A stretch of DNA of 64,000 nt from a virus. Lineage: Duplodnaviria > Caudoviricetes. Positions 24,419 through 64,000 of this stretch are shown one piece after another (within the stretch, counting starts at the first letter, position 1; each line of letters opens with the position of its first letter). The stretch spans positions 32,001 through 96,000 of the IMG/VR virus record IMGVR_UViG_3300033463_000045, one strand, 5' to 3'. A program made the position numbers and the translations under genes. The notes beneath the pieces were generated by a model. That model was not told where the DNA came from. It did no database searches and worked only from the letters and a program-made list of their open reading frames with translations.

Positions 24419-24522
24419 ATATATATTAGAGATATGATAATAATAAAATAATATAAATATATGTTAATATTAAAACATATACCAGAGTGTCTCAGAATGC
24501 ATAAGAAAGGATGTGAATTATT

Positions 24523-25755
24523 ATAAAATTAAATGAATTAAAAGATAAATGTAATCAATTAAAAATTATTCCACAACCAACAAGAAAAAGAAGAAATCCT
24601 GATAGATTAGAAGTTTGCGCTGATGATTGTATAAGAGCAATTCAAAGATATAGTATAGACCAAAAGAAATCTTATGGTCTATATGACTTTAATTTAGAAG
24701 CATTAATTGGTATTAAATCACCAATGTTAGCATTATTAATTAAGCATCAACCTGAAGATGTTCAAAAAGAAATATGGAATGATAATAATTATAATTGGAG
24801 ATTTGAAAAGAAATATAATGGCGTAAGATGTTTTATTTCATATAATAATGAATTGAAAAAGATTTTTATATATGGAAGAGAACTAGATAATGATACATTA
24901 TTGCCAAAAGATTATACAAATAGATTTCAAAAAATAGCATCTGATGTTTTTGATTTATTTCAAGCTGGATTAGTTGGTTATAGTTTTGTTATAGATTGCG
25001 AATTAACTATTAACGATTATTCAAAAGATATAATAGAAGATATATTAAATGACCCATATAAAGATATGGAAGCATTTAAATATGAATTTAATGCCTTTGA
25101 TATATTTTCTACATTAAGAGATGGAACAATTTATAGTTTAGCAAGATTATCTGAAAGAATAAATTTATTAGAAAAAACAATGCAACGTCTTACTCCATAT
25201 AATTTACCAATATATTTAGTAATGTCAAAACCCGATAATGTGTCAAAAGAAGATTTTTATAAATCAATAATTCGTAGTGGTGGAGAAGGAGTTATTGCTA
25301 AAGATTTAAATTCATCTTATGATTTTCGTGGTAAAAGAAATGGTGATTGGACTAAAATTAAAAGATTAAATTATGAAGGAGTTGAAAATTTAAATGCAGA
25401 TACTTACGATTTATTTGTATCTGATTGTATTATCACTGATAATATGGTTAGCGGTTTAGAATTAAGTAGTTATTTAGTTAATGATAATAATGATTTTATA
25501 TATGATAGATTTAATAATCAAATTCCAATAACATTAGGAATATTATATGACTTATTACCAGAAACTAAAAAGTTATTAACATTATATGATAATAATGGAA
25601 AGCCATATATAAATCCAAGATTTTTAGATATTGTTGTAGAAGTAAGGTCTACAGGATTTGATGATTATGTTAATCAATTACAAAATTTAAAATTTGTATG
25701 TTGGAGACTAGATAAAAATTCAAGAGATTGTAAATTTAATAAAGATAAAATATAA
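24523..25755 (+). CDS. lig: ATP-dependent DNA ligase (probable non-ATG start upstream of 24724)
   Basis: Motif I EKKYNGVR, DCE, FDI, EGVIAK, WTKIK, WRLDK; frame open from 24517 behind SD AAAGGATGTGA. Confidence 0.82.
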   Translation: MKLNELKDKCNQLKIIPQPTRKRRNPDRLEVCADDCIRAIQRYSIDQKKSYGLYDFNLEALIGIKSPMLALLIKHQPEDVQKEIWNDNNYNWRFEKKYNGVRCFISYNNELKKIFIYGRELDNDTLLPKDYTNRFQKIASDVFDLFQAGLVGYSFVIDCELTINDYSKDIIEDILNDPYKDMEAFKYEFNAFDIFSTLRDGTIYSLARLSERINLLEKTMQRLTPYNLPIYLVMSKPDNVSKEDFYKSIIRSGGEGVIAKDLNSSYDFRGKRNGDWTKIKRLNYEGVENLNADTYDLFVSDCIITDNMVSGLELSSYLVNDNNDFIYDRFNNQIPITLGILYDLLPETKKLLTLYDNNGKPYINPRFLDIVVEVRSTGFDDYVNQLQNLKFVCWRLDKNSRDCKFNKDKI

Positions 25756-55854: not shown

Positions 55855-56793
55855 ATGGCAGATATAGTATTTCAAAGAATTACATCTACTAGAACAGGAC
55901 AAGGTGCTTCAACAGGTAAAGAAACAGAAACAGCATTTAACGATAACTTTGCTTTAGTTAAAACATGTTTAGACCAATTATTTAATATTGCTTCTAGTGT
56001 AATTCTTTCTGATAATATTACTCAAATAAAAGCAGATACTTCAACAAATCCATATACTTTATATTATACAATAGACCCTTTAGATACTGAACCAAGTCAA
56101 ATAAATTGGGAATTAATAACTAATGTATCTTTTGCTGATATTCAAGGTTTACCTTCTGATAATATTGCATTAGGTACTGCATTAGATTCTAAAGGTTCTG
56201 CAACAGATGTTGCTACATTACAAAATCAAATGTCTGGTGCTTTAGATACAATAAGTACTCATACAAATCAAATAGCAACTAATACTCAAAATATAGGAAC
56301 AAATACATCATCTATTACTTCAATAAGAACAGAATTAGAAAGTGTAGTTCATAATCCAGTAGGTACAACATTATTTTTAAGATATAATTCTGGTGCTATT
56401 GAATATTCAACAGATGGAACTACGTGGACTAGTATTTTAGCAAGTGGAGTTGCTTATTCTCAATTAACAGGAGATGCTTCAGATAGTTCTTCATTAGTTA
56501 ATTATGTAGCAGGAGAAATTACAACTGCTACTAGTTCATTAGTAACTAATACAGCATTTCAGGCACATACGTCTAATAGAAATAATCCACATGATGTTAC
56601 TAAAGACCAAATAGGTTTAGGAAATGTTGCTAATTTAGCTCCCGCTGATTTACCTATTTCAAATGCGGTTCAACAAGCATTAAATGAAATTACAGCAGGA
56701 ACAGTTCCATTAGTAGCATTATCACCAACAGCATATAGAGCATTACCATCACCAAGTTCAGATTCATTATATTTAACAAGCACTATGTACTAA
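55855..56793 (+). CDS. Tail fibre protein
   Basis: Coiled coil; YSTDGTTW; HTSNRNNPHDVTKDQIGLGNV. Confidence 0.7.
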   Translation: MADIVFQRITSTRTGQGASTGKETETAFNDNFALVKTCLDQLFNIASSVILSDNITQIKADTSTNPYTLYYTIDPLDTEPSQINWELITNVSFADIQGLPSDNIALGTALDSKGSATDVATLQNQMSGALDTISTHTNQIATNTQNIGTNTSSITSIRTELESVVHNPVGTTLFLRYNSGAIEYSTDGTTWTSILASGVAYSQLTGDASDSSSLVNYVAGEITTATSSLVTNTAFQAHTSNRNNPHDVTKDQIGLGNVANLAPADLPISNAVQQALNEITAGTVPLVALSPTAYRALPSPSSDSLYLTSTMY

Positions 56794-56813
56794 TATTATA
56801 AGGAGGTATTTAA

Positions 56814-57587
56814 ATGGCAAAAACATTTACTCAAACATTTAGAAATGTCTCTGCAGTTAATGTTGTATTACCAGCAAACTATGTAGAACTTGAATCTACA
56901 ATAGATACTTCTGGTAATAATATGACAGGTTCTTATTGGTTTCATTGGCATGAACCAGAAGGATTTAACTGTTATGGTGTTTCTTATTTATGGTATATAA
57001 GACTTCTTGATGACCATGGTAATACTATAAAAGATATAAATGTTACTACAACTAATGTAAATAATAAAGGTGAGAGAGTATTTTATTATCCAGCAAGTAC
57101 AAGTCAATCTTTCCCAGTTAATGCATCTAATATTAGAACAGAAGCTATTTTAGATAGATATGCAAATGATAATGGTATTCCAAGACATGATGTTGTAGGA
57201 ACTCCTTATTGGAGTAAAGTACAAGCATGTAAAAGAGGAGAACAAGTAAGAGTTCCCGATAATACAAGAATGACTTTTTCTATTCCAATGTCTGAAATAC
57301 CAAATAACGCCAAAGCTTATTGTAATCATGTTATATTTGCTCAATATACATGGAATGGTCATCAACAAGACCCTACAGACCCAGTAAATCAATTTGGAGT
57401 ATATGATTTTCCAAGTGCAGGTCAAGCAATAAGTGATGATAGTACAATAATAGATTTTGCATCTAAGTTATATCTTAGAAATGGTAATTGGCAAGATACA
57501 GCAAGAATATGGCATAAAGAAAATGGAATATGGATTAAAAGATATTTATATAAAAAGATTAATGGTACTTGGACAAAGTTACCATAA
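56814..57587 (+). CDS. Tail-associated or receptor-binding protein
   Basis: Beta-rich; C-terminal NGxW repeats. Confidence 0.55.
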   Translation: MAKTFTQTFRNVSAVNVVLPANYVELESTIDTSGNNMTGSYWFHWHEPEGFNCYGVSYLWYIRLLDDHGNTIKDINVTTTNVNNKGERVFYYPASTSQSFPVNASNIRTEAILDRYANDNGIPRHDVVGTPYWSKVQACKRGEQVRVPDNTRMTFSIPMSEIPNNAKAYCNHVIFAQYTWNGHQQDPTDPVNQFGVYDFPSAGQAISDDSTIIDFASKLYLRNGNWQDTARIWHKENGIWIKRYLYKKINGTWTKLP

Positions 57588-57606
57588 TATGAAAGGAATG
57601 ATTTAA

Positions 57607-58074
57607 ATGTCATTAATTAATTCAGGTGTAATAGCGTCACCTGCTATAGAATTTGGAGACCCTAATGACCCTAATTTTAGTGGTACTTTAACTTTAAGTA
57701 CTATGGAATCAGTTACATTAGAACCTGGATTCTATATAATAAAAGATTCTAAAACTATAGATGGTCAGACAGCAGATATTTGGAACGTTACATGTTTAGG
57801 AAATAATGATGCAAGTAATCCAGTATGTTATATGCAAGTATGGATTCCAGCTTCAAGTACAGGTTTAACTGTAGCAAACCAAAATATTTATGTAAGAACA
57901 ATAAATTCTGCAGGAACTGGTTATGGAAATTTTACTACATTTGTAAATAAAGATTTTTTAACTGATAATGCAGCAATGAATAAAACAGGAAATCCTTTAG
58001 AAATATATGCTCAAAATTCTTCTCCTACACCAGTAGTAGGAAAGAATATAATTTGGATAGATACATCAAGTTAG
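57607..58074 (+). CDS. Tail fibre-associated protein
   Basis: PGFY...IYVRT knob-like region; SSPT...IWIDTS. Confidence 0.55.
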   Translation: MSLINSGVIASPAIEFGDPNDPNFSGTLTLSTMESVTLEPGFYIIKDSKTIDGQTADIWNVTCLGNNDASNPVCYMQVWIPASSTGLTVANQNIYVRTINSAGTGYGNFTTFVNKDFLTDNAAMNKTGNPLEIYAQNSSPTPVVGKNIIWIDTSS

Positions 58075-61215: not shown

Positions 61216-62136
61216 ATGAATTTAGAAGAAGAATTAAAAATGGTTACTAGTTCAGTACCAGTTCAACAAGAATCTACACCAGTAGTAAATACGGTTGCTA
61301 CACCAATACAAGTTGCAGAAGAAGTTAAACAAGAACAACTTCAATCTCAAGCTCAAGTAGTACAACCTACACAAACTATGATGTTTGGAGGAACTGCAAT
61401 GCAACCAATGACTGCTATGCCAAATACTGCTCCAATTAATACAGCAGGATATATGCAAGTACAACATACTGCAGCTGATGAAGCAGGAGTTAGACAAATT
61501 CAATTTGGACAAACTATTAATACAAATCCTATTCAAATTATTAAATTAAATGTAGGAGAAAAAATTAGATTTACATTATTAGAGCAAGATGTTAAACCAT
61601 TAGTATTTCATTATTCAGAAGCACTAGGAGCAGGAACCACTAGAGGAAAAAGAATACCTTGTTGGTCTACGGGTACTTATACAGCAAGATGTTGTATTGA
61701 CTTAGGAAAACCTAAATCAAGATATTATTTACCTGTATTAGTATATCCTACAATGCCAAATGACCCTAATACAATTATTCCTAATGCTAAAGGACAATTT
61801 AAAGTATTAATGACTTGGGATGATATTATTTATAATGCAATCGCAGATTATGCTATTAATACTAATTGCAATGTAGATTTTATTGCAACAGGTAAAGATA
61901 CTTATGGTGGATTAGATGTAAGAAATCAAGTTAATACATATAGAAGTCAATTTACAAATGATATTAATGAAGGTATTCAAAATTGGAGAAGATGTAAAGA
62001 TATGATTCCATCAATGGTTAGAGAAAGTATGACTGAAGAAGAATATGTAAGAAGACTTTCTGAAGTTCAAAATGTAATTAGTGCAGCTCCACAAAATAAT
62101 TATTCAAATTATAATAATTATAATAATATAATGTAA
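61216..62136 (+). CDS. Probable single-stranded DNA-binding protein (gp32-like) with Q/T/P-rich N-terminus
   Basis: IRF...HY...C...CC...PKSRYYLPVLVY pattern; adjacent to polA. Confidence 0.5.
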   Translation: MNLEEELKMVTSSVPVQQESTPVVNTVATPIQVAEEVKQEQLQSQAQVVQPTQTMMFGGTAMQPMTAMPNTAPINTAGYMQVQHTAADEAGVRQIQFGQTINTNPIQIIKLNVGEKIRFTLLEQDVKPLVFHYSEALGAGTTRGKRIPCWSTGTYTARCCIDLGKPKSRYYLPVLVYPTMPNDPNTIIPNAKGQFKVLMTWDDIIYNAIADYAINTNCNVDFIATGKDTYGGLDVRNQVNTYRSQFTNDINEGIQNWRRCKDMIPSMVRESMTEEEYVRRLSEVQNVISAAPQNNYSNYNNYNNIM

Positions 62137-62148
62137 TTAGATTATATT

Positions 62149-62177
62149 AAAGCATCTTTTATAGATGCTTTTATTTT
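62149..62177 (+). terminator. Intrinsic terminator
   Basis: AAAGCATCT-tttat-AGATGCTTTT. Confidence 0.75.
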
Positions 62178-62184
62178 GCGATAT

Positions 62185-62199
62185 TTCATAATATATAAT
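62185..62199 (+). promoter_or_regulatory. Class-1 motif
   Basis: TTCATAATATATAAT before SD AAGGAGG. Confidence 0.8.
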
Positions 62200-62214
62200 A
62201 TAAGGAGGAATATT

Positions 62215-63471
62215 ATGGCAGGAATAATTGAACAAGATTTTACTCATTGGTGTAAACCAGTTCCCTTAAATGATGATTATCCTGATAAATTTGATTTAAA
62301 ATGCATAACTTCAATAGAAGAATTAAATAATATTTTAAATAGTTATAAAAAAGAAGATGGAACTTATCCTATGATGGGATTTGATACAGAAACAACAGGT
62401 TTAAATCCAGAAGAATGTAATATTGTAGGTTACTCATTTTCATTTGACGAAATTCATGCTTATTATGTTCCAGTAAAACATACTAATATTGAAGAAGCTG
62501 AAAAAGATGAAAATGGAAATATAATTAAATACCCAAAAGTTTATATATCATTAGGTGACGAAACATTAGATATTATTTATAATGTAATGTTAAATTGTGA
62601 ATTGGTATTAATGTATAATGCTAGATTTGATATAAGAATGGTGAAATGGTATAAGTTTAGCGAGTCAGATGATAATTATAAAAACGAATTTATAACTAAT
62701 GCTAGAATGAATTTTAAATATAATATGTCTAAAGTAAATGTATATGATATTCAAGTTATGATTTGGGCAACAGATACAGCACATTATATGCCTAAATTAA
62801 AATGGGCAGAATTACAATTTTTAGGTTGGAGAAGTAATACATTTCAAGAAACAAGTGGAGATGCAGGAAATTTTGGTTTATTAGACCCAGAAGACCCAAT
62901 AACTTATAAATATGCAGCCACAGACGCATTGGCATTAATAATGTTATATAATAAATTAAAATGGGTTAGAGATGAAGCAGGTTTATCTTTACAAATGCAT
63001 GCTAATGGAAAAATAATGCCTTTAACTTATTTTGAAGAAACTCCTATTTTTGCAGATGTAGAGTTATTAAAAAAGCAATCAAATTTTTATCATACTAAAG
63101 TAGATGAAATAGAAAAAAGAATATATAATATTGTAGGTTATGAATTTAATATAGCATCAGGACCTTCTAGAGCAAAAGCATTTAAAGATAAAAATATAAT
63201 TATAATGGAAAAAACAGATTCAGGAGCAATCGCTACTGGCGCAAGTGTATTAGAAAAAATACAAAAAGAATTAGACCCAGATTCAGAACAATATATTTTA
63301 ATATCTTTATGTATTGAATATTTACATATTAAAAAGATGTTAAGTACATATATTGATAGTTTATTAGAACAAACAACTACAGATAGTCCAATATATAAAA
63401 CAGGTTTATTTAGATATAGTTATAGAAATACTGCAACCGTTTCAGGTAGATATGCTGGAGGTAAATTTTAA
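62215..63471 (+). CDS. polA: Family A DNA polymerase, N-terminal part (3'-5' exonuclease plus thumb)
   Basis: ExoI FDTETTG, ExoII YNARFD, ExoIII YAATDA; ends TATVSGRYAGGKF*; start at ATG 62215 behind SD. Confidence 0.88.
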   Translation: MAGIIEQDFTHWCKPVPLNDDYPDKFDLKCITSIEELNNILNSYKKEDGTYPMMGFDTETTGLNPEECNIVGYSFSFDEIHAYYVPVKHTNIEEAEKDENGNIIKYPKVYISLGDETLDIIYNVMLNCELVLMYNARFDIRMVKWYKFSESDDNYKNEFITNARMNFKYNMSKVNVYDIQVMIWATDTAHYMPKLKWAELQFLGWRSNTFQETSGDAGNFGLLDPEDPITYKYAATDALALIMLYNKLKWVRDEAGLSLQMHANGKIMPLTYFEETPIFADVELLKKQSNFYHTKVDEIEKRIYNIVGYEFNIASGPSRAKAFKDKNIIIMEKTDSGAIATGASVLEKIQKELDPDSEQYILISLCIEYLHIKKMLSTYIDSLLEQTTTDSPIYKTGLFRYSYRNTATVSGRYAGGKF

Positions 63472-63507
63472 TTAAAAACATAATATATAAAAAGGAGAGT
63501 GATGCTC

Positions 63508-64000
63508 ATGGCTACCAGTGATTTTTTAATCAATGGTAATCCGTAATTACCACAGAACGTCCCAAAATTAAAAGGAGGAGATGTAATGTTCTATGTTGCT
63601 ACAAAAGAACAAATAGAATCATTGCATCCTGAACTAATAAATTATGAACCTAATAAAACAAGATGTTTTTATAAATATGATAATGGTGAAGTAAGATTTT
63701 TTGATAGAATCTTTAATTATTATTTTAGTGATAGACCATGGGGTTTAGAACAAGAATATTTAGCAGAAGGATTAGACCAACAATGGGTAGATAAAATAGA
63801 TTATTTATCATTAAATATTAGAAATACTCATAAAGCTCCAGATGGTTGGACATTTGTATGTTTAGATTATAGTGCTGAAGAAATTAGATTAGGTGCAATT
63901 AATACCGGTTGTAAACTATATACAGAAGCATTTCAAGCAGGAAAAGATATTCATACATTAGTTGGAGAACAAACATGGGGTTACGATGTATATCATAGTA
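63508..64000 (+). CDS. polA: Family A DNA polymerase, C-terminal part (in-frame TAA at 63544; runs off window)
   Basis: MATSDFLINGNP*LPQNVPK...NIRNTHKAPDGWTFVCLDYSAEEIRL (motif A)...AFQAGKDIH; same frame as the upstream part. Confidence 0.8.

Follow-up and report, generated by a model that had tools for sequence, protein, structure and literature searches.

The stretch analysed here (the window) comprises 64,000 nucleotides (bases 32001-96000) of an IMG/VR virus record that measures 112,265 bp and has direct terminal repeats; it carries near its 3' end polA, a DNA polymerase gene that is split in two and interrupted by in-frame stop codons. The record is the genome of an uncultured, AT-rich phage (25% G+C) to which the standard code 11 fits; no tRNA genes and no suppressor tRNA were found in it. 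The upstream part of polA (N-half, 62215..63471, + strand) encodes 418 aa, namely the 3'-5' exonuclease and the first third of the polymerase domain (Pfam matches DNA_pol_A_exo1, PF01612, and DNA_pol_A, PF00476, profile positions 2-120), and ends with ...TVSGRYAGGKF-TAA. The downstream part (C-half) is called as a 366-aa open reading frame (ORF) starting with MFY (L001:1787-2887), which matches DNA_pol_A profile positions 139-380 and contains motifs A (DYSAEE), B (RKMAKILNFNMQYGG) and C (VHDE). On these matches the product is a family A DNA polymerase in split form. The stretch that is absent between both Pfam matches is exactly the NxQNxP motif, and it is there that the gene is broken: the frame reads ...SGRYAGGKF-stop-LKT-stop-YIKRRVMLMATSDFLINGNP-stop-LPQNVPKLKGGDVMFYVATKEQ..., with TAA codons at 63469, 63481 and 63544 and no change of frame. 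A sequence-only reading of the locus had described these three in-frame codons and had listed a phage motif at 63479, a Shine-Dalgarno (SD) sequence, an ATG at 63508, a 7-bp hairpin, an AAGGAGG and a second ATG at 63586; on re-reading the sequence all of these features hold.

The C-half cistron is preceded by an extended SD, GGAGAGTGAT (63494..63503, + strand; GGAG at 63494-63497), and has in-frame ATGs at 63502 and 63508. From ATG 63508 it reads MATSDFLINGNP, then CCG-TAA-TTA-CCA, then QNVPK..., all in one frame, so that TAA 63544 is codon 13. The first 11 codons, MATSDFLINGN (63508..63540, + strand), precede a Pro codon CCG (63541..63543), which we propose as the take-off codon of a translational bypass. 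It is followed by a gap of 6 nt, TAA TTA (63544..63549), made up of the stop and one triplet and presumed to be untranslated, and by a second Pro codon, CCA (63550..63552), the putative landing codon, after which decoding would restart at CAG 63553. The remainder of the C-half (QNVPKLKGGDVMFY..., 63553..64000, all four features on the + strand) continues beyond the window to window-equivalent position 64686.

To place this break in context we turned to relatives. Scans of IMG/VR by protein and by alignment gave only 23-35%-identical ones, and close relatives were drawn from a large protein collection and from contig look-ups, plus four metagenome loci. Their C-halves form two length classes, one of about 388 aa (M..FL[IV]NGNPQNIPKxKGGxxMFY) and one of about 366 aa, called from MFY. 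Because the class of about 388 aa begins at the homologue of ATG 63508 and carries the motif without a stop, we take this to be the start of the cistron. Indeed, intact relatives begin at the homologous ATG or GTG (M..FL[IV]NGNPQNIPK), and those that start M..FLINGNPQNIPK at the homologous ATG bear out the restart at 63508 that had been predicted from the window. The closest relative, L004 (94% identical), reads AAT GGA AAT CCA CAA AAT (FLINGNPQNIPK) and lacks the 6-nt insert altogether.

The gene layout of the relatives also supports the earlier view of polA as a split gene. In L004 the N-half and C-half are adjacent and separated by a 30-nt spacer (36 nt between the two ORFs of the window), and in most other relatives a different gene lies immediately upstream of the C-half. 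No fused gene was found among close relatives, where the longer homologues are intein-bearing C-halves. P0053, a distant relative, is fused and has SGRLAAGGDKKNDYFAALNIQNIPKP at the junction; on one side this aligns with ...ATGRLSS of Klenow and on the other with EEGRRIRQAF..., the SGRLAA stretch that is equivalent to the end of the N-half being the part aligned with ATGRLSS. The split thus falls between the equivalent of Klenow R668 and those of N675, Q677 and N678, known primer-contact residues that lie in the interrupted motif. A second hop, from TTT (63466) to TTT (63523), had been suggested to join both halves in one chain. We reject it, since close relatives are unfused and another gene usually stands upstream of the C-half, and since the longer homologues are C-halves with inteins and not fusions.

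For the short class we obtained DNA from 12 further loci (11 distinct) and from two broken metagenome loci (L047 and L049). All fetched short-class loci are broken inside the same ten codons, and the stop-type alleles, of which 12 are listed here with that of the window, follow one rule: CCG, a stop (TAA, TGA or TAG), 0-18 more bases, and CCN, with gaps of 3, 6, 7, 8, 19 or 21 nt. Gaps of 6 nt occur in the window (CCG TAA TTA CCA), L007 (CCG TAA GTG CCT) and L008 (CCG TGA CGT CCA); gaps of 3 nt in L046 (CCG TAA CCA), L050 (CCG TGA CCA), L051 (CCG TAA CCG) and L058 (CCG TAG CCA); and gaps of 7 nt in L049 (CCG TAAATAA CCT) and L053 (CCG TGAATGT CCA). L052 has a gap of 21 nt with two stops inside it. 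Two alleles are interrupted at the second Pro of the motif (QNIP) with the first Pro intact, namely L047 (CCG, 19 nt, CCA) and L054 (CCG, 8 nt, CCA). The gap sequences are unrelated to each other, and even the middle codon of the 6-nt gaps is unconserved (TTA, GTG, CGT). Joining CCG to CCN nevertheless gives FLxxGNPQNIPKxKGGxxMFY in every stop-type allele, at the length found in intact relatives; the joined peptide of the window, FLINGNPQNVPK, has the same length as in these.

Three further short-class loci differ. L055 (1448-1510) and L056, the same sequence in two assemblies, have no stop insert and instead a one-base deficit in QNIPKKK, at C CCA AAA AG, which fits an X XXY YYZ heptamer and would need a -1 frameshift instead of a hop. 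In L057 (1440-1475), 20 nt are inserted after CAA AAC and fold into a G+C hairpin, CCGGCUUUAAGCCGG, whose loop contains UAA (fold z = -6.2); AAC is a possible take-off codon and GAC a possible landing codon. This insert resembles the G+C-cluster inserts of yeast mitochondria.

The allele series bears directly on readthrough, in which TAA 63544 would be decoded by a near-cognate tRNA and the product NGNP-X-L-P-QNVPK would be longer by three residues. In its favour, the window and the relatives with 3- and 6-nt gaps keep the frame across the gap. However, the gap is not a multiple of three in four alleles (7, 7, 8 and 19 nt), in which the frame is changed, and the in-frame gap of 21 nt contains two stops; readthrough is thus not the general mechanism, and the earlier treatment of it as an equal alternative fails for the gaps of 7, 8 and 19 nt. 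Moreover, all three stop codons occur among the alleles, the phage has no suppressor tRNA and only two genes with internal stops, the middle codon is unconserved, and the extra residues would break the N-x-Q-N spacing of the motif. This spacing is kept in intact relatives and in the fused P0053, which reads ...ALNIQNIPK, and by this comparison it is ancestral. We regard readthrough as extremely unlikely. Reassignment of a stop codon or a suppressor tRNA was rejected likewise, as code 11 fits, no tRNA genes were found, all three stops occur and gaps change the frame.

We then asked whether the sequences on both sides of the gap behave as coding DNA. Downstream of the landing site, the Q, N, P, K, K, G and G codons of the broken alleles differ at third positions only, the Pro codon among them using all four third bases, and the stretch of 11 codons from the landing codon to MFY is conserved at the protein level. 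Before take-off, variation in the conserved Leu and Gly codons of the broken relatives is largely or wholly confined to third positions; at the Ile/Val and first Asn codons the residue changes as well. Pairwise codon differences amount to 211 synonymous and 73 non-synonymous. Judged by this pattern of substitution, both flanks are coding and under protein-level constraint in their own frames.

This constraint argues against a simple restart at MFY, according to which the 12-codon ORF would be a leader (upstream ORF) ending at TAA 63544 and the C-half would start at ATG 63586 and work without NxQNxP. This start does have a perfect SD-like AAGGAGG (63572-63578; with the ATG, 63572..63588, + strand) formed by the K-G-G codons, with a spacing of 7 nt; the Met and K-G-G codons are conserved in all relatives, and gene callers pick MFY in all broken alleles. 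Yet the 11 codons from landing to MFY show third-position variation in the landing frame even when the frame of the leader differs, and an SD accounts for AAR GGN GGN and not for CAR AAY ATH CCN AAR. A leader would need neither CCG, present in 12 of 12 stop-type alleles, nor a CCN bordering the gap. The Met is invariant in intact relatives and present, as MWY, in the fused P0053, where it cannot be a start; because of this it is a conserved residue and not necessarily an initiation codon. Finally, the motif that would be lost holds the equivalents of Klenow N675, Q677 and N678, known to contact the primer. A restart at MFY as the explanation of the break is in our opinion unlikely.

The choice of the take-off codon is also telling. 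CCG occupies this position in 12 of 12 stop-type alleles, whereas within the bodies of the same genes it accounts for 3 of 236 Pro codons and genome-wide for 21 of 985, and the homologous codon of intact alleles is CCA, CCC or CCT (with one exception, the first Pro of L054). Given this contrast, the rare CCG seems to belong to the signal. In hosts of low G+C content, tRNAPro(UGG) would read it through a U34-G wobble, both the host assignment and the wobble being deduced. The UGG isoacceptor is reported to be naturally shift-prone (PMC4519876).

Two types of explanation would place the solution elsewhere than on the ribosome, or dispense with it: removal of the gap from the RNA (by a micro-intron or by editing), and an allele that is inactive and complemented by co-infecting intact phages, or simply misassembled. 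Broken and intact alleles do coexist among near-identical phages. On the other hand, the inserts, 3-21 nt long and unrelated in sequence, are much too short and too diverse for any known intron. In the case of the window, a group I or other self-splicing intron, which should be a structured RNA some 200 nt long or longer and have conserved core helices, is countered by an insert of only 6 nt, by a spacer of just 36 nt between the ORFs and by the lack of any Rfam match in 62000-64000 at E <= 1. Thirteen stop-type alleles, those of the window and of 12 relatives, come from independent assemblies and keep protein-level constraint on both flanks, and decaying pseudogenes would not retain CCG, stop and CCN. 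A protein identical to the MFY-called product of the window is on record from three sources (JGI/IMG, Logan and ENA) and two contigs, which makes an assembly artefact at the break unlikely. Taken together, we hold these explanations to be very unlikely.

The arrangement left to consider is the one found in bypassing. A codon that is slow to decode in the A site (TAA 63544 in the window, a stop in all stop-type alleles) directly follows the take-off codon; just 3' of the gap stands a landing codon with which the same peptidyl-tRNA can pair (CCN in polA, in 12 of 12 stop-type alleles, and, in the second gene described below, CTT/CTT and ACT/ACC); and the gap is non-coding between coding flanks, whatever their frame relation. 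We consider it likely that the polA break is a programmed stop-hop of peptidyl-tRNA on the ribosome. Peptidyl-tRNA(Pro) would sit on the rare CCG, 12 codons into the C-half and inside NxQNxP, when the stop enters the A site. Termination would be slow after a C-terminal Pro, allowing the tRNA to un-pair, the mRNA to slip by 9 nt and the tRNA to re-pair with CCA 63550. Decoding would resume at CAG 63553 and yield MATSDFLINGNP-QNVPKLKGG..., of the length seen in uninterrupted relatives, with ATSDFLINGNPQNVPK as the junction peptide expected from the hop. That the joining takes place on the ribosome, how efficient it is, and what the extended SD, the hairpin and the weak pairing of CCG contribute are inferred from these data. 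The 9-nt hop from CCG to CCA restoring NGNP-QNVPK, as first suggested from the window, gains support from the broken relatives, which follow CCG-stop-(N)n-CCN with gaps that change the frame; a polA alignment, which had been named as a check on it, finds the stop and the matched codons in the stop-type relatives.

The comparative evidence for a stop-hop is strong; several points weigh against it. The gap of the window is itself in frame, and readthrough is excluded there only by analogy with the relatives. The perfect SD and ATG at 63572-63588, 36 nt downstream, mean that a C-half without the motif could also arise. Synthetic stop-hops have reported efficiencies of about 1%, which looks low for a replicative polymerase. 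The nascent chain at the hop would count 12 residues, compared with 46 at the take-off site of T4 gene 60. Lastly, no stimulatory RNA structure conserved across all relatives was found.

The hairpin of the window illustrates this last point. TGGTAAT/CCGTA/ATTACCA (63534..63552, + strand) is a perfect stem of 7 bp whose loop holds the take-off codon together with UA from the stop and whose 3' arm holds the landing codon. Its predicted stability is -6.9 kcal/mol (z = -1.7), and 12 of 200 shuffled sequences fold equally well, so that taken by itself it exceeds chance only marginally. It is lineage-specific (z about -1.7 to -2.1) and absent from gap-3 alleles, where a 4-bp AUGG/CCGU stem is all that forms; the hairpin conservation that the alignment was also meant to reveal did not appear, and we dropped the hairpin as a family-wide signal. 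The alleles with gaps of 19-21 nt (L047 and L052) have stronger hairpins of their own, as has L057. In L047 and L052 the CC of the take-off codon belongs to the stem and its G forms with the stop a GNRA-like loop (CC[GUAA]GG and CC[GUGA]GG). These stronger hairpins of long-gap alleles suggest that RNA structure may matter more for longer hops.

A further sequence that may belong to the signal lies at the ribosome-binding site. GGAG(N)GTGATG occurs only twice in the 112-kb genome, each time before a stop-interrupted gene, polA-C and an SNF2 helicase gene; in full, the extended SD GGAG(N)GTGATGCT(C/A)ATG is found at window 63494-63510 and at G000:C1:98037-98052, in the only two interrupted cistrons. 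GTGAT or GTGGT follows the SD in 14 of 14 broken polA relatives with DNA and in 0 of 2 intact ones with DNA. The extended SD could, speculatively, offset a low yield of hopping, or bring on further ribosomes that would run into the stalled one and push it forward. Collisions between ribosomes are reported to alter recoding in bacteria (PMC6815119). The 9-mer CGTCCCAAA also has only two copies in the genome, one downstream of the polA stop and the other upstream of the SNF2 stop; these are opposite sides of the two stops, and the 9-mer is not conserved in the relatives examined.

The SNF2 helicase gene, beyond the window (G000:C1:98037-98210, equivalent to L002:1897-2070), is interrupted in its Walker A motif. 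It reads ...AAT GCG TCC CAA ACT GGT CTT TGA CTT GGG AAG ACA, that is SQTGL-stop-LGKT, with CTT TGA CTT at L002:2024-2032, and a 6-nt hop from CTT to CTT restores the Walker A motif SQTGLGKT. As is the case for polA, the SNF2 gene of L004 is intact (AAQTGIGKT). The SNF2 relatives again comprise an intact class and a shorter class, and the odd N-termini of the latter are readings of the motif in another frame. In L059 and L060, one SNF2 sequence present in two assemblies, the gene reads CAG ACT TAA CC GGT, and a +5 shift from ACT to ACC restores CQTGLGKT. A scan of the genome based on gene models found breaks only in polA-C and SNF2, plus one gene with a probable non-canonical start. A permissive genome-wide search for codon, stop, gap and matched codon gave 1145 matches, mostly spurious, and was dropped. 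The sole other CCG-stop with a long downstream frame (window 34445) sits inside a continuous ORF of another frame and was rejected.

The interruptions come and go rapidly. On a tree of 44 C-half proteins the distribution of broken and intact alleles needs 10 changes, 8 of them forced by well-supported branches. The intact P0007 shares 98% identity with P0008, which is broken with a gap of 3; L007, L047 and L049 encode near-identical proteins and carry three different inserts at two sites; and the 90%-identity cluster around the window has 7 intact and 6 MFY-called members. Such fast gain and loss at one site in a conserved motif suggests a conflict with selfish nucleases, because inteins occur in relatives' C-halves and because six relatives have, at a distance of 0.1-1.7 kb upstream of their broken C-half, an orthologous endonuclease-like gene of the NUMOD4 + HNH_3 type (L058:282-1385, L008:1-826, L057:1-842, L054:1-543, L055:1-617 and L052:1-32, with a shared C-terminal tail ...FKEELLRRM...). 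In L008, L052 and L057 a dUTPase gene stands between this gene and the C-half. The window genome has no NUMOD4/HNH_3-type gene beside polA and none between the halves, and for this reason the link between endonuclease and break is put forward only as a hypothesis, modelled on the T4 mobA/gene 60 cassette.

One or two inteins (LAGLIDADG_3, Intein_splicing) are present in the C-halves of several relatives (P0042-P0052, 644-1187 aa), and the DNA ligase of one relative also bears an intein (L059:1-693). The replication genes of the clade are heavily colonised by selfish elements. Under such heavy pressure from homing endonucleases and inteins, the inserts may have originated as tolerated indels that disrupt target sites. 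More broadly, and tentatively, stop-hopping could give this phage clade a general and evolvable tolerance of short inserts that disrupt nuclease target sites in catalytic motifs of essential replication genes (PolA, SNF2), with dedicated signals and a long SD driving collisions; we find this possible rather than probable. The dedicated signals may then comprise an SD of unusual length, a rare take-off codon with weak pairing, the stop after it and a landing codon that matches.

Established cases of bypassing are T4 gene 60 with its homologues and the mitochondria of M. capitatus, and the terminase of phage Hau3 has partial experimental support (PMC5009743). As in T4 gene 60 (10.1101/2022.08.31.505936; PMC5009743), a replication enzyme is here encoded by a split gene with the break soon after the start of the downstream cistron, a take-off codon is followed by a stop and has a matched landing codon, and presence or absence varies among close relatives. 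The take-off codon lies in a stem-loop in both cases (here in the window and the long-gap relatives), and, as with the gene 60/MobA cassettes, HNH-type endonuclease genes are near in several relatives. In contrast to the conserved 50-nt gap of gene 60, the gap here is variable (3-21 nt); the hop is from Pro CCG to CCN and not from Gly GGA to GGA; the nascent chain is about 12-17 residues long, without a KKYK-type signal, and there is no SD within the gap. The enzyme is PolA here and a topoisomerase there, with no homology to the cassette and no endonuclease gene between the halves. The polA break is best described as working like gene 60 but standing outside the gene 60/MobA cassette family, as a new natural variant of bypassing.

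The closest geometry is that of synthetic stop-hops in E. coli, such as CUU-stop-CUA with 9 nt decoded as one amino acid (Weiss et al. 1987; O'Connor et al.; both cited through PMC5009743 and 10.1101/2024.12.09.627546). A peptidyl-tRNA in the P site and a stop in the A site are followed there, too, by re-pairing to a matched codon 6-9 nt downstream, and the SNF2 sequence CTT TGA CTT is nearly the textbook construct. Unlike the synthetic sites, which are artificial and inefficient, those described here are natural, recur in essential genes and use a specific rare take-off codon. In E. coli, synthetic constructs show 9-nt stop-hops at a low level, and a review of 2016 stated that their natural occurrence was not known (PMC5009743); we found no later report of a natural stop-hop in the literature searched.

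The byps of Magnusiomyces capitatus and the 10-nt UUA blocks of Hau3 (PMC5009743; PMC10732093) resemble the present inserts in that short sequences inactivating a gene are corrected in translation, vary in length and frame, and present a slow or unusable A-site codon at take-off. However, byps measure 27-55 nt, occur 81 times in a genome and rely on the relaxed decoding of mitochondria, and the Streptomyces phage Hau3 uses a rare sense codon, UUA, as a proposed regulatory sensor where the phages studied here have a true stop. The present sites fall within catalytic motifs that are conserved, in two genes for replication. As with shift-prone tRNAPro(UGG) and Pro-stop recoding sites (PMC4519876), a P-site tRNAPro would re-pair beside a stop with another CCN. 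Those sites are overlapping +1 shifts that give an extended second product, whereas here re-pairing would be non-overlapping, 6-24 nt away and needed for the only functional product. A +1 shift at CCC UGA is reportedly used in structural genes of Listeria phage PSA.

Bypassing long rested on one well-studied natural case, T4 gene 60, joined later by yeast mitochondria and one Streptomyces phage candidate. If the broader reading of stop-hopping as a general tolerance is true, the alleles described here would constitute the first family of short translational bypasses from nature and a simple model in which to study them. The polA site is only 12 codons from the start codon and experimentally tractable. 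The natural allele series (gaps of 0, 3, 6, 7, 8, 19 and 21 nt, three stops and two sites), together with the second gene, makes the rules of take-off, scanning and landing directly testable. Since gene callers cut such essential genes to the next ATG and lose the motif, short inserts with stops in conserved motifs of phage genes should not be taken as pseudogenes.

Other features of the region were noted. A promoter-like phage motif, CATAATATATAA, precedes the N-half (62187..62198, + strand) and recurs within the 36-nt spacer between the halves (63479..63490, + strand). It has 14 exact + strand copies in the window, where at <=1 mismatch there are 20 matches compared with 9.9 +/- 3 in shuffled sequences, and the spacer of L004 carries it too. 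Between the QNxP motif and motif A, the C-half has an insertion of about 75 residues (MFYVATKEQ...DYLSLN; window 63586-63810, residues 1-75 of the MFY-called C-half) that is kept across the clade and at which the Pfam DNA_pol_A profile has few residues. Finally, in the gene at window 24517-25755 (G000 56517-57755), 69 open codons precede the first ATG, GTG or TTG; its start is probably a non-canonical ATT or ATA (ATT ATT ATA AAA) just past the SD-like AAAGGATGTGA.

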